This document shows, one piece after another, positions 30,860 through 43,109 of a stretch of 64,000 bases of DNA. A program made the position numbers and the translations under genes. The notes beneath the pieces are model-generated. The model saw nothing but the letters and a program-made list of their open reading frames with translations. It had not been told where the DNA came from and did not search any database. The first letter of the stretch is position 1, and each line of letters opens with the position of its first letter. The stretch comes from Alphaproteobacteria bacterium (GTDB lineage Bacteria; Pseudomonadota; Alphaproteobacteria; GM7ARS4; G965262615): assembly GCA_965262615.1 (NCBI GenBank), contig OZ253545.1, positions 1,478,259 through 1,542,258 on the forward strand, in the 5' to 3' direction.

Positions 30860-31462
30860 ATGTATTTCAATATAGGACAACGCCTTGTTCTTGCAACACA
30901 CAATCAAGGCAAGGTGAGGGAAATCGGAGCGATGCTGCGTCCCCATCGCCTCACCGTGATTGATGCTTCAAGCGCGTCTGTGCCCGAACCCATAGAAGAT
31001 GGTGACAGTTTTGAAGCCAATGCCTTGCTGAAATCTCGCCATGCGGCACGGCTGAGCGGCTTGCCCGCCCTTGCCGATGATTCCGGACTTGCCGTCACGG
31101 CTCTGGACGGTGCACCCGGTATCTATTCGGCACGCTACGGCGGACCAGGACAGCCCTTCAGCAAAGCCATTGAACGAGTGCTCGCCGAACTCTCAGACCA
31201 CACCGACCGAAGCGCGCGCTTTATCTCGGTGCTTGCCCTCACTTATGAAAGTGGCGGCAGAGAATACAGTCACTGCTTTGGTGGCTCGGTGCTGGGAAGC
31301 ATCACCCACCAGCCCATCGGCGAACACGGATTTGGCTATGACCCCATCTTTATCCCTCAGCACCACCAACTGAGCTTTGCCCAAATGCCGCAAGAAACCA
31401 AAAACACCATCTCGCATCGCGCCCGCTCGTTCCAATTGTTTCGCCATGCCATGTTGCCGTGA
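30860..31462 (+). CDS. rdgB: dITP/XTP pyrophosphatase
   Basis: ATHNQGK, ADDSGL, APGIYSARY, FGYDPIF, SHR. Confidence 0.95.
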   Translation: MYFNIGQRLVLATHNQGKVREIGAMLRPHRLTVIDASSASVPEPIEDGDSFEANALLKSRHAARLSGLPALADDSGLAVTALDGAPGIYSARYGGPGQPFSKAIERVLAELSDHTDRSARFISVLALTYESGGREYSHCFGGSVLGSITHQPIGEHGFGYDPIFIPQHHQLSFAQMPQETKNTISHRARSFQLFRHAMLP

Positions 31463-31730
31463 ATCACAATCCTCGCCTCTGGCACTTTATGTCCATTTTC
31501 CCTACTGCCATCACAAAAGTGGCGGCAAGGAATACAGTCACTGCTTTGGTGGCTCGGTGCTGGGAAGCATTGCCCTCCAGCCCATCGGCGAACACGGATT
31601 TGGCTATGACCCCATCTTTATTCCTCAGCACCACCAACTGAGCTTTGCCCAAATGCCGCAAGAAACCAAAAACACCATCTCGCATCGCGCCCGCTCGTTC
31701 CAATTGTTTCGCCATGCCATGTTGCCGTGA
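31446..31730 (+). CDS. Chimeric HemW-N/RdgB-C mini-ORF 1 (94 aa)
   Basis: MPCCRES..YCHH fused in frame to KSGG..FGYDP..SHR..MLP. Confidence 0.5.
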   Translation: MPCCRESQSSPLALYVHFPYCHHKSGGKEYSHCFGGSVLGSIALQPIGEHGFGYDPIFIPQHHQLSFAQMPQETKNTISHRARSFQLFRHAMLP

Positions 31731-31998
31731 ATCACAATCCTCGCCTCTGGCACTTTATGTCCATTTTCCCTACTGCCATCACAAAAGTGGCGGCAAGCAA
31801 TACAGTCACTGCTTTGGTGGCTCGGTGCTGGGAAGCATCACCCACCATCCCATCGGCGAACACGGATTTGGCTATGACCCCATCTTTATTCCTCAGCACC
31901 ACCGACTGAGCTTTGCCCAAATGCCGCAAGAAACCAAAAACACCATCTCTCATCGTGCCCGCTCGTTCCAATTGTTTCGCCATGCCATGTTGCCGTGA
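31714..31998 (+). CDS. Chimeric HemW-N/RdgB-C mini-ORF 2
   Basis: Same structure as mini-ORF 1, variant residues. Confidence 0.5.
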   Translation: MPCCRESQSSPLALYVHFPYCHHKSGGKQYSHCFGGSVLGSITHHPIGEHGFGYDPIFIPQHHRLSFAQMPQETKNTISHRARSFQLFRHAMLP

Positions 31999-32266
31999 AT
32001 CACAATCTGACCCTCTGGCACTTTATGTGCATTTTCCCTACTGCCATCACAAAAGTGGCGGCAAGCAATACAGTCACTGCTTTGGTGGCTCGGTGCTGGG
32101 AAACATTGCCCACCAGCCCATCGGCGAACACGGATTTGGCTATGACCCCATCTTTATTCCTCAGCACCACCGACTGAGCTTTGCCCAAATGCCGCAAGAA
32201 ACCAAAAACACCATCTCCCATCGTGCCCGCTCGTTCCAATTGTTTCGCCATGCCATGTTGCCGTGA
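31982..32266 (+). CDS. Chimeric HemW-N/RdgB-C mini-ORF 3
   Basis: Same structure as mini-ORF 1, variant residues. Confidence 0.5.
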   Translation: MPCCRESQSDPLALYVHFPYCHHKSGGKQYSHCFGGSVLGNIAHQPIGEHGFGYDPIFIPQHHRLSFAQMPQETKNTISHRARSFQLFRHAMLP

Positions 32267-33419
32267 ATCACAATCCTCGCCTCTGGCACTTTATGTGCAT
32301 TTTCCCTACTGCCATCACATCTGTCCCTATTGCCATCTTCATAAAAGTCTCAATCACGCCATTGATGAAAAACGCGTTCTATCTGCCTATGAGGCACAAT
32401 TATCATATCTGGCGGCACATGTGCCACTGCGTCCTGTCACCAGTGTTTTTTTCGGCGGCGGTACGCCTTCATTGATGTCCCACCACATGTGTGCTCGCTT
32501 GCTGGAACGCATCAGTCATTATTGCGGTATTCATGATGATGCCGAAATCACATGTGAGTTTCATCCATCCCATCATGAGCAATTGGCGAGTTTCAAAGCG
32601 GCTGGTATCAACCGAATTTCCATCGCCGCCGAAGCTTTCACTGACAAAGGACTGCAAACGCTTGGTCGTCCCTACGACACGACCGCCATCATCACCATGC
32701 TGCAAAAAGCCCAACGCCTCTATGACCATGTCTCGTGTGACTTCATCCATAGCCGTCCTCATCAAACGCTTGCCCAGTGGCAAGAGGAACTGCACGCCAT
32801 CATTGCCCTTGGGTGTGACCATCTCTCTCTTTACGAGCTCACGCTGGATGGCGGCAGTGTGTTTGGCAAACAACACGCTCAAGGCATTCTGAAGACTCAC
32901 GATGAAAGCAAGGCGCGTCAGTTTTATGACGAAACCCACAAAATCATGACATCCGCGGGGTATCATCAGTATGAGATTTCCAATTATGCGCGTGACCATC
33001 ACGAAAGCCGTCATAATCTTTCCTATTGGCGTTACGAGCCGTCCATTGCCATTGGCGCGAGTGGTGCGGGACGCATGGACACCTCAGACGGCGCGCGCAT
33101 TGCTTTGCGCGCCATCTGTCACGCCGCCACATGGCTTGAGGCGGTGGAGCAAGGAGACAGTGGCTACGATGAATGGCACACGCTCTGTGCCACAGAAATG
33201 GCTCGGGAGATTTTTCTCACCCAGCTGCGCCTGAGCGTGGGTCTGTCATTGACACGCCTTCATGAGCTCACGGGCGGCGGTCTTGACCAGTGGTGCGATA
33301 TGAGTGCCCTCCAACGCCTGCAACACGGCGGATGGCTCACATGCACTCCAACACATTTGCGCCTCACCCATGATGGACGCGCTGTGTTTAATGAAGTGCT
33401 GGCACAGCTACTCCTCTGA
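32250..33419 (+). CDS. hemW: Radical SAM heme chaperone HemW (HemN-like)
   Basis: LYVHFPYCHHICPYC, FFGGGTPS, HLSLYELT, YEISNYA, HNLSYW. Confidence 0.88.
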   Translation: MPCCRESQSSPLALYVHFPYCHHICPYCHLHKSLNHAIDEKRVLSAYEAQLSYLAAHVPLRPVTSVFFGGGTPSLMSHHMCARLLERISHYCGIHDDAEITCEFHPSHHEQLASFKAAGINRISIAAEAFTDKGLQTLGRPYDTTAIITMLQKAQRLYDHVSCDFIHSRPHQTLAQWQEELHAIIALGCDHLSLYELTLDGGSVFGKQHAQGILKTHDESKARQFYDETHKIMTSAGYHQYEISNYARDHHESRHNLSYWRYEPSIAIGASGAGRMDTSDGARIALRAICHAATWLEAVEQGDSGYDEWHTLCATEMAREIFLTQLRLSVGLSLTRLHELTGGGLDQWCDMSALQRLQHGGWLTCTPTHLRLTHDGRAVFNEVLAQLLL

Positions 33420-34673
33420 GGAGCCGCGTGTTCCTTGATAAATCAGTTCCCGCTTGGGCTGTTCAATGATGCGGGGGCCTTTTCTTGTCATTTCATAAAT
33501 AGCCAGAGCTCGTTCAACAAATCCCTTGTCGTTAAGACGAAAAAATCCATTCACTCCCTTATAGCCGCGCGGCAGTGTCAGACGCTCCACCGTGATGTCC
33601 CCCGTGCGTGACAGATTGAGAACCAAAGACAACGCATCATACACAATGGAAGCAATGCGGGTGGGCGATTGCTCAAAGGTCTCGCGAAAGCGTCTTTGAA
33701 AATTGCGGCGCGGTGTAATCAGGGTTGAGACAAACCATCCGCCGCGCAAAGATGGATCGCCAAACAATGTTTCATCCTCCCAGATGCTCGTTCCCAAAAA
33801 CAACACATCAGGCGGTGAGGCTTGAGAAAACGCCAAAAAAGCGGTGGCTGACAATAAATCCTGCCCCCCCATCGGCAGCAACACCGCATCAAAAGGCAGG
33901 GCAATCTGTCGCCGCAAGTCCTGAATAACGGGAACATCCTCTTTGGATTTCACATCCAGCTGCAAACGCTCCCGCCACTGTTCAAACAGGATATCCCTTT
34001 TATCAAAAGAGGCAAACTCATTGATTTGATCAAACACGCGATTGATGCGTCCCTTATAAAACAAGCGGCGCGTGACCAAAACATCATTTTCTTTGGCAAA
34101 AATGTCCAGCACCGCTTCCGCGAGACGCGCGTATTCATCGTCCGATGCCAAAATGGCGAATCGCCGCGCCCCCTGTTCAAACGCGTAACGCACGATGCGC
34201 GCCGCATCCTCATAGGGATCATAGCCCATCATGAAAATATTGCTGGCGGCATAATTGAAATTAGAACTCAGTGCCAGCACCGGGATGCCCTCACGAATGG
34301 CATCATCGTAGATTGCCGCCACTTCTTCCGAAAACAAGGGCCCGATGATGACATCCGCGCCCTGTGCAACAGCATCCCCGAATGCCTCCTGTGCCTTAGA
34401 GGCATAGCCCTCCGTGTCATAGGGCTGCAGACGAATATAATCCGCGCCGTAATCAAATAATGCCAGCTCCGCGGCGGCGCGCAGATTATCACCCAAAGCC
34501 TTCCACTCCCCCGACAAAGGCAGAAGCAGTGCGATGGTGACGGTATCCTCCTTATTGGCTGGCGCAACGGCATCATCATTTTGCGCGTGTGCCATGCCGC
34601 TCGCCATGAGCAGAGTCAGCAGAACAGTCAGCAGAACCGTCAGCAGAACCGTCAATTGTGTCAGTTTTTTCAT
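33408..34673 (-). CDS. Penicillin-binding protein activator (LpoA/LppC-like periplasmic-binding fold)
   Basis: IALLLPLSG, AAELALFD, IIGPLFS, GVNGFFR..G.VERALAI; divergent from rsmI. Confidence 0.85.
   Translation of the reverse strand: MKKLTQLTVLLTVLLTVLLTLLMASGMAHAQNDDAVAPANKEDTVTIALLLPLSGEWKALGDNLRAAAELALFDYGADYIRLQPYDTEGYASKAQEAFGDAVAQGADVIIGPLFSEEVAAIYDDAIREGIPVLALSSNFNYAASNIFMMGYDPYEDAARIVRYAFEQGARRFAILASDDEYARLAEAVLDIFAKENDVLVTRRLFYKGRINRVFDQINEFASFDKRDILFEQWRERLQLDVKSKEDVPVIQDLRRQIALPFDAVLLPMGGQDLLSATAFLAFSQASPPDVLFLGTSIWEDETLFGDPSLRGGWFVSTLITPRRNFQRRFRETFEQSPTRIASIVYDALSLVLNLSRTGDITVERLTLPRGYKGVNGFFRLNDKGFVERALAIYEMTRKGPRIIEQPKRELIYQGTRGSSEE
34615..34654. repeat. 12-bp tandem repeat x3 (VLLT) in signal peptide
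   Basis: GTCAGCAGAAC(A/C) at 34615, 34627, 34639. Confidence 0.9.
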
Positions 34674-34712
34674 TTCCTTTGCCGCAACCCAAAATTATGA
34701 TAAAGAGCCATC

Positions 34713-35441
34713 ATGATGACAACTCCCATCATAAAGCAGGCGTCCGTGGAACTCAACGCTGGATTGTATGTTGTGGCGACTCCCATTGGTCATAGCGAAG
34801 ATATTACTCTGCGCGCCTTGAATGTTTTGACTCATGCCTCGGTGATTGCCTGTGAAGACACGCGCCACACCAAACGCTTGCTGTCCATTCATGGCATCAC
34901 GACTCCTTGCACGATTTATCATCAGCACAATGCCTCGCGAGTGACCAAAAATCTGCTGGAACGCATGAGCCAGGGCGATGCCATTGCCTTGGTGAGTGAT
35001 GCCGGCATGCCCACAATTTCAGACCCTGGCAGATGTCTGATTGATGCCTGTCACGAAGCGGGCATTGGCTGCACGGTGATTCCGGGGGCGAGTGCCATCA
35101 CGACGGCTCTGGCTGCCAGTGGCTTGGCGGCGGATGTGTTTTATTTTGCCGGTTTTGCGCCGCGCAAACAAGGAGCACGAAAACAATGGCTGACTCGTCT
35201 GTCGCACTATGATGGCGCGCTGGTGCTGTTTGAATCCCCCCATCGCCTGCTTGCCTGCCTTGCCGATTGCGCGACAATTTTTCCCACCCGCCAAGCAGCG
35301 GTCGGACGAGAAATGACAAAAAAACACGAAGAAATCAAACGAGGACTGCTCTCAGATCTTCACGCCCAGTACCAAAATTATGAACGCATTCGCGGCGAAT
35401 GCACAATTGTAATTAGTGGCAAGGAGCACGGCGGTGCATAA
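34713..35441 (+). CDS. rsmI: 16S rRNA (C1402) 2'-O-methyltransferase
   Basis: LYVVATPIG, CEDTR, VSDAGMPTISDPG, FESPHRL, REMTK. Confidence 0.95.
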   Translation: MMTTPIIKQASVELNAGLYVVATPIGHSEDITLRALNVLTHASVIACEDTRHTKRLLSIHGITTPCTIYHQHNASRVTKNLLERMSQGDAIALVSDAGMPTISDPGRCLIDACHEAGIGCTVIPGASAITTALAASGLAADVFYFAGFAPRKQGARKQWLTRLSHYDGALVLFESPHRLLACLADCATIFPTRQAAVGREMTKKHEEIKRGLLSDLHAQYQNYERIRGECTIVISGKEHGGA

Positions 35442-35787
35442 AAAAACGCGCGCTCGTCTGAGAGGTCTTTGGGGTGAGTATTACGCCATGTTGTATTTGT
35501 TCCTGCGTGGCTATCGCATTGTGCATCACAATTGGCGATGCCCTTTGGGTGAGATTGATATCATCGCTCGGCGCGGCAGCCATCTGGCGATGATTGAGGT
35601 GAAACATCATGAGTTCTACGATGATGCCGCGCCTGCGGTGTCAACTCGCCAGCAGTCGCGCATTGTGCGGGCGGCGGGCATGTATCTGACATCTCATCGC
35701 CGCATCACCAATGACACCATTTCATTTGATGCCATTGTCTTGCACGGATGGTGGCGACTGCATCACATACCCAACGCATGGCAATAA
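35434..35787 (+). CDS. yraN: YraN family protein
   Basis: GEIDIIA, IEVK, FDAI, HIPNAW; follows rsmI. Confidence 0.9.
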   Translation: MHKKTRARLRGLWGEYYAMLYLFLRGYRIVHHNWRCPLGEIDIIARRGSHLAMIEVKHHEFYDDAAPAVSTRQQSRIVRAAGMYLTSHRRITNDTISFDAIVLHGWWRLHHIPNAWQ

Positions 35788-35974
35788 AAACGACAACAAA
35801 AACAACTTTGCGTCATCATTCGCGCATTGTGCGGGCGGCGGGCATGTATCTGGCATCTCATGCTCGCGCCACCAATGACACCATTTCATTTGATGCCATT
35901 GTCTTGCACGGCTGGTGGCGACTGCATCATGTCCCCAACGCATGGCAATAAAAACGGCAATAAAAAACAACTTT
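35647..35974 (+). repeat. 164-bp tandem duplication of the yraN 3' end; second copy forms mini-ORF 35778-35951
   Basis: TCGCGCATTGTGCGG at 35656 and 35820; diverged copies. Confidence 0.92.
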
Positions 35975-36017
35975 AAGTCATAAAAACTCTTGACAAAGAA
36001 ACGGGTCATCTTATGTA

Positions 36018-36209
36018 TTGCCAGTGCATCATGACCATGACATCAGCGATTCGCTCTGTGCTTTGGCACAGTATTTTTATGCCGCCTCAGAACAGCAGGA
36101 ATCATTGCTTTTGGACGACAAAGCCTTGGCATCGCTGTCTTATCTGTTGTGCCAGTTGGCTCTGCAGGCGGTGGATTTGGAGGAAGTTCATGACCAGTGC
36201 ATCCATTGA
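36018..36209 (+). CDS. Small hypothetical protein, possibly phage-derived
   Basis: 63-aa helical ORF overlapping the start of the Mor-like gene; TTGACA at 35990 upstream. Confidence 0.4.
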   Translation: MPVHHDHDISDSLCALAQYFYAASEQQESLLLDDKALASLSYLLCQLALQAVDLEEVHDQCIH

Positions 36210-36546
36210 GCATCTTCATCAACAAATCAAAAATCGCCTGCCTCCCGTTCTGGAAGAGATTGCCGAGATTGCGGGCGTTGAGGTTGCCCTCAATCTTGCC
36301 CTTCAAGGTGGCGGACGGCGACTGCGTGTGCCGCGCGAAGCCACTGGCAGTCGCCTTGCCTCATGGGTGGGAAGCGATGCCGCGACGCGCATCGCTCAAC
36401 ACATGAGCTACATGTATTTTGAAATTCCGCAAGCCAAATCGGCGTGTGCCTTGTGGATGCGTCATCAAGGCAAGAGTGTTGAAGACATCGCCTACAGTCT
36501 CAAATCCACTCGGCGTTCCGTGCAAAATTGGCTCAATGGCACATGA
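36190..36546 (+). CDS. Mor/C-like transcriptional activator of Mu-like phages
   Basis: LP.VLEEIAEIAG...AL.L....GG..L.VP and C-terminal HTH GKSVEDIAYSL..TRRSV; SD GGAGG. Confidence 0.8.
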   Translation: MTSASIEHLHQQIKNRLPPVLEEIAEIAGVEVALNLALQGGGRRLRVPREATGSRLASWVGSDAATRIAQHMSYMYFEIPQAKSACALWMRHQGKSVEDIAYSLKSTRRSVQNWLNGT

Positions 36547-36598
36547 CGGCGTTATCTTTCACCTCGCGCATCTCTCACTTTCAGCCTATATCAGCCTC

Positions 36599-36904
36599 AT
36601 GACCGACCCCATCACCATTGATATCAATCTGCTTGTTCTCTTGTGGGAGGTGACTCTTGCCGTCATAACGGCGGTTGCCTTTTTGGGCATGTGGCTGTTT
36701 CGCCGTCAATTATCACAGACTCAGGTCATCAATCAGGTTGAAAAGCGCGTGGTGTGCATGGAAGAGCGTCTGAATAATGTTCCCACCAAGGCGGCTGTGG
36801 CGCGCATCGCAGGCGATGTGCGCGCGCTGTCGCAGCTGCTGCAGCGCATTGAGCGTTGCATTGAGCGCATTGATCACGCCGTGAAAGACTCTCAATCGTC
36901 ATGA
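36599..36904 (+). CDS. DUF2730-like (Mu gp25-like) membrane protein
   Basis: N-terminal TM, RV..MEERL..VPT, coiled coil; position before terminase genes. Confidence 0.7.
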   Translation: MTDPITIDINLLVLLWEVTLAVITAVAFLGMWLFRRQLSQTQVINQVEKRVVCMEERLNNVPTKAAVARIAGDVRALSQLLQRIERCIERIDHAVKDSQSS

Positions 36905-37143
36905 CACAGCGTCCGCCTCTTGCCGAACACATTGAACAATTGATTTTTGATTATAGCCGTCATCCCGATGAGCCGATGACCAGCGCCGATTTGCATCAGC
37001 TGGCGCGAGCGGCAAAAGAATTGGCAACGGCGCGCCACATTCATGAAAAGCAGCCTCCCGATTCGGCATCCAAAAAAAGCAAAGGGCTCTCCAAAAAAAC
37101 CCTGCAGCTGATAGAGCATGACATTCTCGGCATCAAACGATGA
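36901..37143 (+). CDS. Shortened Mu gp27/DUF3486-like small terminase
   Basis: C-terminal KGLS..T...I...ILGI; only 80 aa; overlaps TerL start. Confidence 0.65.
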   Translation: MTQRPPLAEHIEQLIFDYSRHPDEPMTSADLHQLARAAKELATARHIHEKQPPDSASKKSKGLSKKTLQLIEHDILGIKR

Positions 37144-38563
37144 GGCGGCGCAGCGTCCTGCTCTGGCGTTGATTTCGGCTCACGCGCGGCAGGCGTATTT
37201 TCTGCCGTATCAGGAGATGTGGCTGCGAGATTCTTCTCGTCTGAAAATATGGGTGAAATCTCGGCGTATTGGCGCGACCTATGTGCAAGCCTATGAAGAT
37301 GTCGCCGATGCCGCCAGTGGACGCGGCATGGATGTGTGGTTTTCCTCCGCCGATGAATCCGCCGCCAAAGAGTATATTCGCTATTGCATTCACTGGGCGG
37401 AATTGCTCAATCTCGCCGCGCAAGATTTAGGAGAAATTGCCCTTGATGCCGACAATGGCGTCAAGGCACAGGCACTGTCGTTTGCCAATGGTCATCGCAT
37501 TCATGGCATCAGCAGCAATCCGCGCGCCTTTCGCTCCAAGGGAGGCAAGTTGGTTTTGGATGAGTTTGCCTTTCATCAAGATGCTCGCGCCATGTGGAAG
37601 GCTGCCGCCCCCATCGTGACTTGGGGATATCCGGTGCGTTTGATTTCCAGCTGTAACGGCAAGCATTCATTGCATCAGCAACTGAGTGAACAAGCCGACC
37701 ACAGCGATAGCCCATGGAGTCTTCACAAGACCACCATTCGTCAAGCGGTGGATCAGGGTTTGGCGGATCGCATCAAGGCGCGCCCACTCAAGCATCATGA
37801 GCGTGATGCCTTCATTGAGGAGTGTCGCGCCATTGCTGGCAATGAAGATGCCTTTCGCGAAGAGTATTTGTGTGAAGCCAGTGATTCCAAAAAAGATTTT
37901 CTGGAATGGCAGGATATCATGGCGTGTGAGCACGCCCTTGCGGGGCGTGAGGACGGTTATCAAGGAGGCATCTGTTACGGCGGCATGGATATTGGTCTGC
38001 GTCACGATCGCACGGTGATTTGGATTGTGGAACAGTGCGGTGATGTCTTTTGGACGCGAGAGGTGGTGGCGTTGCATGATTGCTCATTTGCCCAGCAGGA
38101 TGCCACACTGCACCGTCTGATGAGCCACTATCGTGTGGGACGCTTGGCGATGGATCGCACCGGCATCGGGGAGCGCAGTGTGGAGCAGTGTCAGCAACGC
38201 TATGGTCAACACTGTGTGGAGGGGGTTCATTTCACTCTTGCCAGCAAGAAAGAGATGGCGATGAGTCTCAGAAATGCCTTCATGATGCGTCAGGTGCGTA
38301 TTCCCGAAGATGAAACCATTCGCAAAGATCACCACACCATTCGCAAGACAGTCACCGCTGCGGGACATGTCCGCTTTGATGCGCGGCGCACCCAAGACGG
38401 GCATGGTGACTATTTTTGGGCTCACGCCCTTGCTTTTTATGCCGCAGGCATGGGGCAGCATCGGTATGATTATGTCAATCACCGTGCCTCACCTCTTTTT
38501 CACCGTGAATCACGGGATGCACACGCTGTGTCACCGTATTCTCGTCACACAACCATCTGGTAA
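37118..38563 (+). CDS. Mu gp28-like large terminase
   Basis: FLPYQ..W, KSRRIG, LVLDEFAFH (Walker B), nuclease GMDIG, DRTGIG, HGDYFWA. Confidence 0.92.
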   Translation: MTFSASNDEAAQRPALALISAHARQAYFLPYQEMWLRDSSRLKIWVKSRRIGATYVQAYEDVADAASGRGMDVWFSSADESAAKEYIRYCIHWAELLNLAAQDLGEIALDADNGVKAQALSFANGHRIHGISSNPRAFRSKGGKLVLDEFAFHQDARAMWKAAAPIVTWGYPVRLISSCNGKHSLHQQLSEQADHSDSPWSLHKTTIRQAVDQGLADRIKARPLKHHERDAFIEECRAIAGNEDAFREEYLCEASDSKKDFLEWQDIMACEHALAGREDGYQGGICYGGMDIGLRHDRTVIWIVEQCGDVFWTREVVALHDCSFAQQDATLHRLMSHYRVGRLAMDRTGIGERSVEQCQQRYGQHCVEGVHFTLASKKEMAMSLRNAFMMRQVRIPEDETIRKDHHTIRKTVTAAGHVRFDARRTQDGHGDYFWAHALAFYAAGMGQHRYDYVNHRASPLFHRESRDAHAVSPYSRHTTIW

Positions 38564-38580
38564 TCATAGGAGAATTGTTC

Positions 38581-39819
38581 ATGTCTATTATTGACCCTCG
38601 CCATCTGTTGGAGCCTCAGGCTCATACCGAAGAGAATCACAGTTTTTTGGCTCGCAAGAATGGCATTGACCCCTCAGTGGGTCTGACACCGACCCGCCTT
38701 GCGCGCCTGTTGCGAGATGCGGAAAACGGTCAGTGGGATGACTATCTCGCACTGGCGGAACGCATGGAGGAAAAAGACGCTCAATATTTGGCGGTTCTGG
38801 GAGTGCGCAAGCGTCAGGTGAGTCAAAAGCACCTGCGCGTTGCCCCCGCCGATGACAGCCATGATGCCATGCAGGATGCCGAGCTGGTGCGCCAGTTCAT
38901 CAATCGCATGACCATTGAAGACGAACTCTTTGACATGCTGGATGCGGTGGGCAAGGGCTATTCGGTCACCGAGATTTTGTGGGAGACCAGTGAGCGGCAG
39001 TGGATGCCCACCGCTCTGAAATGGATGGACCCGCGTCTATTCGTCTTCAAAAATCACCGTTTAGAGCTGGGCAATCATCAAGAGTCTGAGGCTTTGCGTC
39101 CGTTTCAATTCATCACTTTGTCGTTGCGAGCGAAATCTGGCTTGCCGTCGCGCGGCGGCTTGGCTCGTCCGATGGCATGGATTTATCTTTTCAAGAATTT
39201 TTCCATTCGCGGCTGGCTGGAATTTGCGGAAATTTATGGACAACCCCTGCGCTTGGGACGCTATCACAACGGCGCGAGCGAGGAGGAAAAACGCACCCTG
39301 CTGCGAGCGGTGGCGGGAATCAGCCGTGATGCCGCCGCCATCATTCCCGAAAGCATGTCCATTGAATTTGCCTCTGCCAATGCGCGCGGCAGTGGGGAGC
39401 TGTATGAAAATCTTGCCTCCTACATGGACAGACAAATCTCCAAGCTGGTTCTGGGTCAAACCAGCACCATAGATGCCATCAGTGGCGGTCATGCGGTGGG
39501 ACGGGAACACGAAAAAGTGCGCCAAGACATCATGCGCGCCGATGCCAGACAGCTGGAAGCCACCCTCAATCAACAATTGATTCGTCCGCTCGTGATGCTC
39601 AATCACGGTGCGCGCGCCAGCTATCCGCGGCTGATCATTGAGGATGACACCAACGAGCGTCCCAATTGGGATGTGCTGAGCAAAGCATTAGAGCGTCTTG
39701 TGCCACTGGGCTTGCAGGTATCGGAACAAGAGGTGCGCTCCATGTTGGGTCTGTCCCGCCCCAAAGAAGGGGATGCGCTGCTGGGTGAGTCTCACGACAA
39801 GCCCGCGCCCACCCGTTGA
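38581..39819 (+). CDS. Mu gp29-like portal protein (DUF935)
   Basis: GLTP.RLA..LR.AE.G, MEEKD, DAVGKGYSVTEI, FAEIYGQP.R.G.Y, ISKLVLGQT; SD AGGAGA. Confidence 0.92.
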   Translation: MSIIDPRHLLEPQAHTEENHSFLARKNGIDPSVGLTPTRLARLLRDAENGQWDDYLALAERMEEKDAQYLAVLGVRKRQVSQKHLRVAPADDSHDAMQDAELVRQFINRMTIEDELFDMLDAVGKGYSVTEILWETSERQWMPTALKWMDPRLFVFKNHRLELGNHQESEALRPFQFITLSLRAKSGLPSRGGLARPMAWIYLFKNFSIRGWLEFAEIYGQPLRLGRYHNGASEEEKRTLLRAVAGISRDAAAIIPESMSIEFASANARGSGELYENLASYMDRQISKLVLGQTSTIDAISGGHAVGREHEKVRQDIMRADARQLEATLNQQLIRPLVMLNHGARASYPRLIIEDDTNERPNWDVLSKALERLVPLGLQVSEQEVRSMLGLSRPKEGDALLGESHDKPAPTR

Positions 39820-40892
39820 TCGCGATGAATCCACACATTCATGAGCAATCCCACGCCCACAAAGAGCGTGATCATGCTGGAGCCGCCATAGGATAAAAAC
39901 GGCAACGGTGCCCCCACCACAGGCAGCAAGCCACTCACCATGCCGATGTTGACCACCACATAGGTGGTGATGGCTGTCGTCACCCCCAGCGAGATGACCA
40001 CTCCAAAATGATGACGACACGCAAAGGCGATGTAAAATCCCGATGCCATCACAATCGTGTAAAGCAGCAGCAAAAAGATCGCGCCGCTAAATCCCATCTC
40101 TTCGGCGTACATGGTAAAGATAAAGTCGGTTTGTTTCTCCGGCAGAAAATCCAAGTGACTTTGAGGTCCTTGCAAAAACCCCCGTCCCCAAAATCCGCCC
40201 GAGCCCAAAGCGATTTTAGATTGAATGGCATGATACCCCGCGCCCAAAGGGTCTTGTTCGGGGTCAAGAAATGCCAGCAGGCGGCGTTTTTGATAGTCAT
40301 GCAAATAGCTCCAAGCAAATGGCGCAGACAGCAAAGCCAAAAAGCTCATCAGCATGAACTTGAACGATGACACCCCCGCCATATAAATGGTGACAATGCC
40401 AATAATCACCAGCAAGATCGCCGTTCCCAAGTCGGGCTGAATGGCGATGAGAGCGGCGGGGATAAAAATCAATGCAAGGGGAATCACAAAGGAGCTCCAT
40501 GACATGCGCGTCTGACGAGAACGGTCATGAAAAAAGCGCGCCAGCAACAAGACGAGACTGACTTTTAATAATTCGGAAGGTTGCAATCGCAGGACATCAA
40601 AATCCAGCCACCGCCGTGCCCCCATGCCGGTGTCCCCAAACAAAAAAACAGCCAGCAGCAGCAAGAGGGTCACCCCATACAATGGATACGCCCACCCATG
40701 CCATTGATTGATGGGGCGACTGGCAATGAGCATCATGATGCCAAGCCCCAACACCAACCGAACGGCGTGGGTCAGTGCCCACGGCTGCCACGCGCCTCCT
40801 GCGGCGGAGTAGAGCATAGCGACACCAATCAGGGAGAGCATCGTCACCGCCAGCAACAATGGCAGATGATGATTTTTGATTAAGGTCATCAT
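39792..40892 (-). CDS. rodA: Rod shape-determining SEDS protein
   Basis: GARRW, QPSE, QPDLGT, FLPEKQTDFIF, LPFLSYGGSS. Confidence 0.96.
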   Translation of the reverse strand: MMTLIKNHHLPLLLAVTMLSLIGVAMLYSAAGGAWQPWALTHAVRLVLGLGIMMLIASRPINQWHGWAYPLYGVTLLLLLAVFLFGDTGMGARRWLDFDVLRLQPSELLKVSLVLLLARFFHDRSRQTRMSWSSFVIPLALIFIPAALIAIQPDLGTAILLVIIGIVTIYMAGVSSFKFMLMSFLALLSAPFAWSYLHDYQKRRLLAFLDPEQDPLGAGYHAIQSKIALGSGGFWGRGFLQGPQSHLDFLPEKQTDFIFTMYAEEMGFSGAIFLLLLYTIVMASGFYIAFACRHHFGVVISLGVTTAITTYVVVNIGMVSGLLPVVGAPLPFLSYGGSSMITLFVGVGLLMNVWIHRDQRVGAGLS

Positions 40893-42688
40893 GCGGCGTT
40901 CCTGTCAGGCAGCCATCGCTGTGCCCATAGCAAGATGTCTCTGGCGATGGGAGCAGCCACCGCCGCGCCTCCCCCACCATGCTCCACCAACACCGATACC
41001 GCATAGCGAGGACGGCGCAATGGTGCGTATCCCACAAACACCGCATGATCGCGCAAGTGCCACGGCAATTGGCGATTGGACAACGAGCCCAGAGTGCGTT
41101 CATGACTCAAAAATTGCCGCACCTGTGATGTTCCGGTTTTGCCCGCCATTTCCAATCGGTCAATGGCGATGCGAGCGGCGTAGGCTGTGCCTTTGTCATC
41201 ATTGACGGCAGCCACCATGCCTTGCTGAATGGGCTTGAGGATGTAGTCACCAATGGGTGTGGTGTGAGGTTTGGTGCGCGGCTCATTTTGCAACAGAGAT
41301 GGATTGAGGAACGCATCTCCCGTGGCAAGAGCAGAAGCCATGACCGCCAGTTGCAAGGCATTGCAGCTGACCCATCCCTGTCCGATGCCATTGACATAGC
41401 TGTTGCCCTGATGCCATCGCTCACCAAATCGCCGCTGCTTCCACGCACTGTCGGGAATAAATCCCGCCTTTTGCGGAGCAAGGGGCAAATCGTATGATTG
41501 ACCCAGCCCCAGACGCAGTGCCATTTTTTTGACGGCATCAATGCTGACTTTTTCCATCAAGCGATAAAAATAGACATCACACGATTGAGCAATGGCTTGC
41601 GCCAGAGCCAGTTCGCCGTGTCCTTCTTCTCGCCAGCAGTGAAATCGTCTGCCGCCTGCTTCAATGAATCCTTCGCAATTGACGGTTTCAAAGTCGTTGG
41701 CGACGCCCTCCTCCAAAGCGGCGAGTGCCACCACCAATTTGAAAACCGATCCCGGCGCATACAATCCGGCAATGGCTTTATTGACCAGAGGAGCTTTTTC
41801 GTCATCGGTGAGCTTCTGCCAGTAATCACTGTCCAGTTCTTGACTGAGTCTTTGGGGGTCATACCCCGGACGCGACACCATCGCCTTGACGGATCCATCT
41901 CGGCAATCCATCAAGACGGCTGCGCCACTCTCATCGCCAAAACGGCGCGCCGCCAATGATTGCACCCGCTGATCCAGCGTCAGATGAACATGGTGTCCCG
42001 CCACCGCAGCTTGACGATTAAGATCGCGAATGGGCTTGCCATAAGCATTGACCTCCAACTGCAAGAGACCGGGTGTGCCGCGCAAATAGGTGTCAAAATG
42101 CGACTCCATGCCATCTCGTCCCACAGCGGCTTGAATGCGTTGCCGCTCATGCACCCATTCTTGCTCTTTGTCCGCCTCTCCCATGTATCCCACCACATGA
42201 CAATTCTCCTCACCAAAAGGATACAAACGCTGTTCGGCAATCACCACCCGCATTCCCTCCAATTGGTCATGATGAGCCTCCAGTCGCGCCACATCATCCC
42301 AACTGAGATTGACCAGCACCTCAATGGGAGCAAAGGCTGGATTGGTCGCGATGCGTTCGATGACCTCTCGGCGGCGTTGTTCAGACAACGGAATGATGCG
42401 CGCCACCGCCCGCAAACTGGCTTCAGCATCACTGGTCTCTTCGGCAATCAGCGTCAATTGATACACGCGCCGATTGAGGGCAAGAGGCAATCCCTGTCCG
42501 TCAAAAATCATGCCGCGCTGGGGAATCACAGGACGAAAAGAAATGCGGTTGCTGCTGGCAAGAGAATCGTAATGATGCGCATCTAAAATCTGCAATTGAA
42601 ACAATCGCCCCGCCAGCAGCATCATGACACCCCCCTGTGCCGCCGCCACCAACAAGGCTCGCCGTCTAATATTTGTACCGCCGCTCAT
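40889..42688 (-). CDS. mrdA: Penicillin-binding protein 2
   Basis: PGSVFK, SCD, KTGT motifs. Confidence 0.96.
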   Translation of the reverse strand: MSGGTNIRRRALLVAAAQGGVMMLLAGRLFQLQILDAHHYDSLASSNRISFRPVIPQRGMIFDGQGLPLALNRRVYQLTLIAEETSDAEASLRAVARIIPLSEQRRREVIERIATNPAFAPIEVLVNLSWDDVARLEAHHDQLEGMRVVIAEQRLYPFGEENCHVVGYMGEADKEQEWVHERQRIQAAVGRDGMESHFDTYLRGTPGLLQLEVNAYGKPIRDLNRQAAVAGHHVHLTLDQRVQSLAARRFGDESGAAVLMDCRDGSVKAMVSRPGYDPQRLSQELDSDYWQKLTDDEKAPLVNKAIAGLYAPGSVFKLVVALAALEEGVANDFETVNCEGFIEAGGRRFHCWREEGHGELALAQAIAQSCDVYFYRLMEKVSIDAVKKMALRLGLGQSYDLPLAPQKAGFIPDSAWKQRRFGERWHQGNSYVNGIGQGWVSCNALQLAVMASALATGDAFLNPSLLQNEPRTKPHTTPIGDYILKPIQQGMVAAVNDDKGTAYAARIAIDRLEMAGKTGTSQVRQFLSHERTLGSLSNRQLPWHLRDHAVFVGYAPLRRPRYAVSVLVEHGGGGAAVAAPIARDILLWAQRWLPDRNAA

Positions 42689-43109
42689 CTTTTTTCTCCG
42701 CAACAATCATCATGACAGAAAAGAAAATCAAGGCATACATTGATGACCGCCACAGCATGACAAACGCGCCGTATCCCATCAATGAGAGTGCCGTCACCAA
42801 CCCAAGCAACGCCAGCACAAACGCCAGCACCCTAGCGATCATTCCCGCACGAGCCAATGGCGAGCGCGCCATCATCATCATCCATGCAAACATCACGCCG
42901 TGTGAGCCAAACGGCGCCCCCGTCCATACATCACTCATAAGCCCCGCGCCAAAGGCAAACAACACATGAAAGGGCACATGGCAACTCAACCAAAAAAACG
43001 CGCTGCTGGGAACAAAAGCCAGACTCTGCCGCAATGATGCCTCACCATAGGGCGCATGAGACACAAACAACGCCACCATCAACCACAGACCGGCACGCAT
43101 ATAATTCAT
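42666..43109 (-). CDS. mreD: Rod shape-determining protein MreD (divergent)
   Basis: Hydrophobic, GLMSDVWTGAPFG; between mreC and mrdA. Confidence 0.7.
   Translation of the reverse strand: MNYMRAGLWLMVALFVSHAPYGEASLRQSLAFVPSSAFFWLSCHVPFHVLFAFGAGLMSDVWTGAPFGSHGVMFAWMMMMARSPLARAGMIARVLAFVLALLGLVTALSLMGYGAFVMLWRSSMYALIFFSVMMIVAEKKDERRYKY

Follow-up and report, generated by a model that had tools for sequence, protein, structure and literature searches.

Mu-type packaging genes between yraN and rodA as half of a candidate two-locus, gene transfer agent-like particle system in an alphaproteobacterium

The stretch of DNA studied here (the window) is the final 64 kb of the single 1,542,258-bp contig OZ253545.1, the genome of an alphaproteobacterium (1.54 Mb, 98.3% complete, treated here as a circle). 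Between the host genes yraN and rodA, at genome positions 1,514,448-1,518,077, the window carries five open reading frames (ORFs), all on the + strand and thus in the same direction, that encode a Mor-like activator, a DUF2730 protein, a small terminase, a large terminase (TerL) and a Mu-type portal, in this order (locus 1). An earlier note on this DNA had proposed that the block is a domesticated packaging machine of Mu type, whose head and tail modules lie elsewhere in the genome. We discuss it here, together with a second locus, as a candidate for a domesticated particle system resembling a gene transfer agent (GTA). Positions from 30860 to 42700 are given in window numbering. The loci were compared with 82 related Mu-like loci (7,608 ORFs), 67 of which extend 5 kb or more beyond the portal gene, and with three genomes of the same order; none of the comparison genomes belongs to the same genus or family.

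The first gene of locus 1 (36190-36546, 118 aa) begins with an ATG behind a GGAGG and matches the Mor/C family of late transcription activators (phrog_836, 3.9e-18), while its Pfam Mor match stays under the Pfam cut-off (21.8 bits, 2e-4). In a tblastn search, 17 of the 82 relatives' loci (16 of L018-L097, plus L014) had an ORF that it matched at the corresponding place. From the sequence, its start is most likely 36190, and the long ORF that opens at 36013 or 36018 is most likely leader for the main part. The second gene (36599-36904) encodes a DUF2730 membrane protein with an N-terminal hydrophobic segment (phrog_736, 2.9e-10; Pfam DUF2730 match of 19.7 bits and 9e-4, also under the cut-off). 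Its most likely start is 36599; the insertion of 2 bp that one related strain (run X12) has at 36592 fits this position. The third gene (36901-37143) encodes a small terminase of 80 aa, here called TerS', which corresponds to the C-terminal half of such proteins (PHROGs small terminase, 9.7e-6; Pfam Gp27 match of 19.5 bits, again under the cut-off).

The two remaining genes are recognised with more ease. TerL (37118-38563, 481 aa) matches Terminase_6N (2.9e-8) and Terminase_6C (5.7e-17). Aligned with 70 relatives, it agrees with their consensus at the Walker-A-like KSRRxGxT, at the DE of Walker B and at GxDxG..D, D..G.G and HGD, keeps all three acidic nuclease motifs, and retains 36 of the 44 columns of at least 90% conservation. 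The portal (38581-39819) has 412 aa from its ATG, or 414 aa from a TTG at 38575, and covers positions 2-336 of the 336-position Portal_Mu profile (PF06074, 1.2e-96); its 3' end shares 28 bp (39792-39819) with the convergent rodA. No internal stop was found in the ORFs of either locus, and no head, tail, transposase or repressor gene lies beside locus 1 within the window. The earlier note had described all of this correctly: the five ORFs in Mu order and in one direction, the absence of internal stops, the preserved ATPase and nuclease motifs of TerL, the 28-bp overlap and the lack of other phage genes around the block. Two of its statements had to be revised: its first ORF, which is mostly leader in front of the Mor gene, and the description of the cassette as intact, as the small terminase is only a C-terminal half and the portal is short by about 100 C-terminal residues.

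The genome contains a single other phage-like locus (locus 2, genome positions 387,031-402,471), outside the window, with its phage genes on the - strand; this is where the head and tail modules, which the earlier note had placed elsewhere, are found. The search of the genome for the Mu major head family gave one intact gene (400,051-400,911, E = 1.8e-112; PF10124, 3.6e-112). The same locus encodes a Mu-type protease/scaffold (PF10123, 6.1e-62), a virion structural (minor capsid) protein (phrog_1731), a gp36-type adaptor (PF07030, Phage_Mu_Gp36, 7.8e-35), a 145-aa tail terminator (PF23840; phrog_209), a tail tube (PF18906, Phage_tube_2, 1.1e-12), a first chaperone-like ORF (phrog_569, 2.6e-14) and a second one of 77 aa, on which no family search was run. 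The tail genes continue with a tape measure of 313 aa (phrog_1716, 3e-20), a distal tail protein (phrog_1302, 2.4e-32), a hub-like protein (phrog_2048, 2.6e-39), a DUF6950 protein (PF22262, 1.1e-21) and a J-like fibre of 931 aa (PF13550 and fn3). Between the chaperones and the tape measure lies a 5-kb array of six paralogous genes on the opposite strand (392463-397539, +), an insertion that is not phage-like. Locus 2 is bounded by EipB-like and NDUS4-like host genes, which belong to families typical of Alphaproteobacteria.

The gene order of the relatives connects the two loci. Among the 67 relatives' loci that extend at least 5 kb past the portal, the protease is the next gene on the same strand in 65, the major head protein is found in 59, and an F gene stands between portal and protease in 63. 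Since protease and head genes directly follow the portal in relatives, loci 1 and 2 are best seen as the halves of one late region, and this region is, by the same comparison, broken between portal and protease. When all the relatives' ORFs were compared with the whole genome, phage-like matches were confined to the segments 396-402 kb and 1514-1518 kb and to a single MT-A70 methylase; the remaining ones were scattered single matches to host-type genes (sigma factor, HU, ACP, DnaA and ABC ATPases).

The two halves are separated by 411 kb (or by 1.11 Mb in the opposite direction around the circle). A separation of this kind could in principle be an assembly artefact, with locus 1 being part of a complete and active Mu-like prophage. 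The only point in favour of this explanation is the general risk of misjoins in single-contig genomes derived from metagenomes, and we consider it highly improbable. Indeed, an independent contig of 11,059 bp from a related strain (run X5) spans positions 33400-42700 with about 2.4% differences and keeps both junctions, so that the yraN-module-rodA synteny which the earlier note wished to see in relatives is present there, with no assembly break. Moreover, no transposase, F or lysin was found in this 98.3% complete genome. The portal had no full-length close counterpart among 5.8 billion proteins, where the next match was 59% identical; no close DNA relative of the portal was found in IMG/VR, and the JGI metagenome contigs gave none for either the portal or the major head protein.

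The absence of the early, transposition part of a Mu-like phage was also foreseen by the earlier note. The profile search of the genome for the MuA-type DDE_2 family (PF02914) gave no match, with the control genome G059 positive at 4.4e-54, MuB not being searched on its own; the rve integrase family gave 0 matches. As no transposase was found, the element does not belong with the transposable phages. The HK97-type capsid (PF05065) and portal (PF04860) families also gave 0 matches each, while a Caulobacter control genome was positive for both. This means that the genome holds no classical alphaproteobacterial GTA and that the element is not a cluster of the type of RcGTA. Conversely, the Mu-type portal, the protease/scaffold I and the major head protein T are all three present. 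Because the loci lie 411 kb (or 1.11 Mb) apart, a single headful of Mu size cannot hold both, and no replication or transposition module accompanies them; the element cannot spread itself.

Two proteins of locus 1 are shortened. Against a profile of 205 positions derived from the proteins of 58 relatives (165-265 aa), TerS' covers positions 101-189 only, and it is without the N-terminal ~95 residues of the relatives, including the conserved segment SSID..VSRSALGRH; the missing part is presumably the DNA-binding one. A prediction of the TerS'-TerL complex had a score of 0.00, which is evidence in neither direction. The homology of the portal to 14 relatives stops at residue ~403-404, while these extend 100-140 residues further, with a variable linker and a conserved terminal domain; beyond that point, the portal frame runs partly on the antisense strand of rodA up to its stop. 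Among the 120 portal homologues listed, only those of its own cluster have 412 aa, the others (48-59% identical) having 431-565 aa. Deletion-type truncations exist in three genes.

The loss in the portal can be compared with what occurs in Mu itself. In the Mu virion, as described in PMC11915804, the portal gp29 is without its last 124 residues, a state ascribed there to cleavage by protease I. Residues 33-403 of the portal studied here align with residues 36-412 of the 512 of Mu gp29, so all of the mature Mu portal as seen in the virion is retained. The ~100-residue loss would thus come roughly close to the piece that is trimmed during head maturation in Mu.

The tape measure is also small. 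It aligns end to end with Rhodobacterales tape measures of 206-231 aa. Its 313 aa had been read as a truncated fragment, as PHROGs matched the last third of long tape measures; this reading was dropped in view of the end-to-end alignment and of an N-terminus conserved in six variants. The tape measure is therefore short in a sense that leaves two origins on a par, N-terminal loss or module exchange. The sequence search against solved structures with the tape measure, the distal tail, the hub-like protein and the fibre gave no match to RcGTA; all that it returned was weak similarity to a tape measure of the lambda type and to the pb3 hub of T5. The 145-aa terminator has no pairwise similarity to Mu gp37; the annotation of Mu gp37 is worded as that of phrog_209, the family that the terminator matches.

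Several observations weigh against a particle system that still functions as a GTA. The F gene, present in 63 of the 67 relatives' loci, is absent here: the search of the genome for Mu F (PF04233) by hidden Markov models (HMM) and tblastn had its best E-value at 0.061, under the cut-off, with the controls G059 and G021 positive. Neck1 (phrog_26), present in 56 of 63 relatives, was not found in the genome by HMM or tblastn. No lysin resembling those of the relatives appeared in the whole-genome comparison with their ORFs; for the block itself, the earlier note had already described the endolysin as absent. The motif scan upstream of mor, DUF2730, protease and tape measure gave no convincing promoter motif common to the two loci, and no CtrA boxes were found. 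As the six-gene array stands between the chaperones and the tape measure, the tail-tip genes need a promoter of their own. The tube protein retains only 21 of 32 conserved columns. Furthermore, the portal is present in 0 of the three genomes of the same order, and the conservation described below is seen within one species-level cluster; those genomes are distant (RodA at most 51% identical; yraN homologues in all three, with yraN and rodA 60 kb apart in G002). Lastly, the argument for selection is built on divergence totals, protein variants and open frames, not on a codon-based dN/dS.

These observations bring in a second explanation, that the two loci are an inert relic: a Mu-like prophage that lost its ends, was split by a rearrangement and was then eroded by the deletion bias of a shrinking genome, with no function left. 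The truncated small terminase, and the truncated portal whose frame enters the antisense strand of rodA until a chance stop, would be expected of such a relic and count against the GTA-like reading in the same way, as does the loss of F, Neck1, lysin and the entire early region. The foreign array sits at the site of a long tape-measure N-terminus, and the absence of the portal from the three genomes of the same order means that the acquisition could be fairly recent. What speaks against a relic is the present state of the genes. In a genome of 1.54 Mb, open frames add up to about 13.8 kb, and nothing among them is recognisable as a piece of a pseudogene; the marks of a decaying prophage (frameshifts, internal stops, gene fragments) were not seen, and full-length variants are of equal or near-equal length.

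The variation among related strains allows decay and conservation to be compared. All or part of the stretch is carried by 14 public runs from seven studies, and those openly labelled are sponge or marine metagenomes. The portal cluster includes 14 protein variants, 97-100% identical, of which 13 have 412 aa; the 14th (303 aa) is without the N-terminal part. All eight TerS' variants have 80 aa, with changes confined to the linker residues 29-60. An exact look-up of six of the proteins of this genome in the cluster table found none. Since the truncations are common to all variants, the divergence postdates them, and a relic has to explain why, after truncation, the portal proteins differ by at most 3% while the DNA differs by 2.4-5.8%.

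The DNA divergence leads to the same result. In run X7, the module differs at 100 of 2970 positions and the flanks (lpoA-like, rsmI, yraN, rodA and mrdA) at 198 of 4496; in run X12, the counts are 110 of 2085 and 203 of 3241. A neutral stretch is expected to change at roughly the synonymous rate, which is several-fold that of essential genes. The module diverges no faster than rodA and mrdA, and thus it does not behave as a neutral stretch, contrary to what a functionless relic would do. The indels listed for the module in four runs, with three further ones outside the list, were the 2-bp insertion of run X12, which lies upstream of the inferred start of DUF2730, and, in run X5, a deletion at 38479 that removes 21 bp in frame close to the TerL end; no listed indel breaks a frame.

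The clearest signal comes from the tail genes of locus 2, whose frames stay open at much larger distances. The tape-measure variants are 97, 91, 83, 79, 77 and 78% identical, with 313, 313, 314, 300, 301 and 301 aa, respectively; the N-terminus and the C-terminal third are conserved, with in-frame indels between them. The fibre variants are 98, 80, 79 and 80% identical (925-928 aa); their residues 1-460 are nearly unchanged, and identity falls to about 60% in the C-terminal half, where the indels are in frame and the frame stays open. Open frames at about 20% protein divergence, with in-frame indels only, are a further difficulty for the relic. A receptor-binding fibre end that is open but diversifying looks like the pattern of tails still meeting cell surfaces, and it would be hard to explain in dead DNA. 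Within the species cluster, this evidence points to selection, and we regard an inert relic as quite unlikely.

Selection, however, is not specific for gene transfer. A domesticated particle kept for another role, such as killing in the manner of PBSX or the production of decoy parts (a small terminase unable to bind DNA, a shortened portal) that sabotage infecting Mu-like phages, would be backed by the same evidence. The hypervariable half of the receptor-binding fibre suits a targeting of strain against strain, and the lack of F, which is a "DNA pilot" by annotation, would be tolerable if DNA delivery were not the purpose. The genome-wide avoidance of palindromes described below suggests heavy pressure from phages and restriction. 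On the other side, the presence of all the catalytic motifs of TerL and the conserved portal argue that DNA packaging probably persists, and pure interference needs neither a full head and tail set nor a variable fibre. Taken together, another selected role seems unlikely, if still worth keeping in mind.

The composition of both loci is that of the host. The tetranucleotide TCGA, whose absence from the block the earlier note had rightly attributed to a bias of the host, occurs 0 times in 36013-39819 against 8.7 expected, and 185 of 405 genome windows of the same size likewise have none. In the genome, several palindromes are found far less than expected from a Markov model (observed/expected: ACGT 72/3231, GGCC 329/8598, TCGA 394/3481, CCGG 1464/5506, GATC 2399/7856), and both loci follow this avoidance, which suggests several restriction systems, now or formerly. 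The codon usage of both loci is inside the range of 802 long host ORFs, while that of the six-gene array is outside. A host-like composition fits a long residence in this genome, but it would be equally expected of a phage that had adapted to these restriction systems.

The nearest isolated phages are siphoviruses of Rhodobacteraceae with Mu-like heads: vB_RhkS_P1 (Rhodovulum), RC1 (Rhodobacter), RS1, vB_PeaS-P1 and vB_ThpS-P1. The portal is about 47% identical to those of these isolates and 56-59% identical to those of prophages (about 80, e.g., in Marivibrio halodurans); for TerL the identity to these siphoviruses and prophages is 36-38%, for the major head protein it is 42-50%, and the late genes come in the same order. 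However, the relatives are single units of about 39 kb with gp26, a small terminase of 170-260 aa, a portal of 510-560 aa and a long tape measure. For instance, vB_RhkS_P1 is contiguous over 38.8 kb and carries a repressor, MuA/MuB, a lysin, a 178-aa small terminase, a 517-aa portal, F, Neck1 and a 643-aa tape measure. In the genome studied here, each of those parts is either gone or reduced in length, and what is left is divided between two loci. A DUF2730 protein is present while its partner lysin was not found; according to PMC9239132, the releasin gp25 of Mu, an accessory protein of lysis, belongs to the DUF2730 family.

A neck without Neck1 has parallels. In Mu, PMC11915804 describes a neck of portal, gp36 adaptor and terminator only, and in the Pseudomonas phage JBD30, PMC11445458 describes adaptor and stopper only. 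The genes found here share with both phages the portal, a gp36-family adaptor and one further neck ring, so that, by analogy, an adaptor with a single further ring is a neck with precedent in Mu and JBD30. As the necks of Mu and JBD30 have two rings below the portal, the missing Neck1 counts against a working particle without being decisive; we had held it to be fatal, a view dropped after these published structures. Mu differs in being a myovirus that replicates by transposition and in having F and G, the latter annotated as of the Neck1 type.

With the RcGTA-type GTAs (Rhodobacter capsulatus, Caulobacter), the system shares a phage-derived set of head, tail and terminase genes without replication or integration genes, the placement of these genes over more than one locus, a short tape measure and a host-like composition. 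Among homologues of similar length, the nearest to the tape measure are Rhodobacterales "tape measure" proteins of 215-222 aa, presumably the size class of the RcGTA clusters. The differences are that the portal, protease and major head protein are here of Mu type (PF06074, PF10123, PF10124), that a Mor/C-type activator is kept, that CtrA boxes and matches to the solved RcGTA tail proteins are lacking, and that the present system is known from its genes alone. BaGTA, VSH-1 and the particles of the PBSX type are likewise independently domesticated particle systems, and they package host DNA; a "divided genome" of VSH-1 is cited in PMC11841831. In contrast to the present case, they come from unrelated phage ancestors and their activity was shown by experiment. 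In the literature, Dd1/Desulfovibrio included and subscription journals being outside the coverage, no described Mu-derived GTA was found, as the earlier note had also stated.

In the light of these comparisons, the reading that we favour is that of a domesticated, non-self-transmissible particle system of Mu-like ancestry that resembles a GTA, for which the chances seem to us about even. Its ancestor would be a siphovirus with a Mu-like head, whose derivative, now devoid of a transposase, occupies two loci, locus 1 being the half for regulation and packaging. Those genomic features of GTAs that can be read from the sequence are there: a dispersed gene set, the lack of a replication, integration or transposition module, and a small terminase without the conserved N-terminal segment of its relatives. 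The idea of a domesticated packaging machine advanced in the earlier note thus holds as regards the split gene set and the selection-like divergence, and is weakened by the truncated TerS' and portal and by the missing F and Neck1. In such a system, Mor would turn on both loci and proheads would assemble; TerS' and TerL would begin packaging without sequence specificity and fill the heads, by headful, with host DNA; short tails with the strain-variable fibre would then join the heads, and the particles would bring DNA to neighbour cells, or act on them, in a GTA-like (or PBSX-like) way.

More tentatively, and with somewhat more doubt than trust, we propose that this may be a GTA evolved independently from a transposable siphovirus with a Mu-like head, in a genome-reduced alphaproteobacterium of sponge and marine metagenomes. 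In the course of domestication, transposition and lysin would have been lost and the genes split over two loci; the loss of the N-terminal half of TerS, presumably DNA-binding, would have led to unspecific headful packaging; the portal would have become hard-wired near its protease-trimmed state, and the tape measure would have been shortened. The fast-diversifying fibre would decide which sister strains receive DNA.

GTAs are known to have arisen independently only a handful of times. If the proposal is true, the same changes (loss of the terminase DNA-binding domain, scattered genes, short tail, host-like composition) recur when very different phages are tamed, and this would give sharper genomic criteria for recognising GTAs. 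It would also provide a route of gene exchange within an uncultured symbiont population with a 1.5-Mb genome without transposases. Should the system prove not to be a GTA, it remains a clear example of a phage remnant that selection has held on to despite the loss of supposedly essential parts.

Some further features of the two loci and their surroundings were observed. In the array within locus 2 (L017 8463-13539), the six tandem paralogs have ~267-308 aa and each begins with MMMW(M/L)R..VYGTALSFLLVSD, which is signal-peptide-like; the one copy read fully has about five internal repeats of 41 aa. The array has a GC content of 42.7% and a GC3 of 0.377, unlike the rest of the genome, and family searches of its six genes gave no convincing match. 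At genome positions 294059-294619, outside the window and directly after a 269-aa ORF, lies the gene for the MT-A70-type DNA methyltransferase (186 aa, DPPW motif), 26-37% identical to ORFs of the early/middle region in the Mu-like prophages of nine relatives. This gene may be another orphan fragment, the third, left by the same prophage or by a similar one.

On the left of locus 1, yraN (35416-35787, +; Pfam UPF0102, 7.1e-21) has the same direction as the module and is followed by a tandem duplicate of its 3' end (35811-35966, 164-bp period, 90% identical to 35647-35802). The duplicated part consists of the last 156 nt of yraN and the downstream spacer, and the contig of run X5 skips 164 bp there. 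The leader of the Mor-like gene (35967-36189, +) contains, on reading the sequence, a TTGACA at 35991 and a terminator-like hairpin at 36056-36071; a sigma-70 promoter scan of this leader gave no qualifying site. The hairpin, which has the yraN duplicate on one side and the Mor-like gene on the other, is followed by a T-run on the coding strand and might act as a gate for transcription that runs on from the host genes rsmI-yraN into the module. On the right, rodA (39792-40892, -; Pfam FTSW_RODA_SPOVE, 1.5e-99) is the final gene of the predicted mreB-side cell-shape operon.

Two other sites of the window deserve mention. At 34614-34645, the related strains have differing in-frame deletions (3, 12, 15 and 24 bp); this is the 5' end, a length-variable N-terminal segment, of an LppC/periplasmic-binding-like gene (33408-34673, -). 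At 31377-32266, ORFs of equal length recur every 268 bases on both strands, which indicates a tandem repeat of ~268 bp in or beside the ORFs 32181-33419 and 30860-31462.

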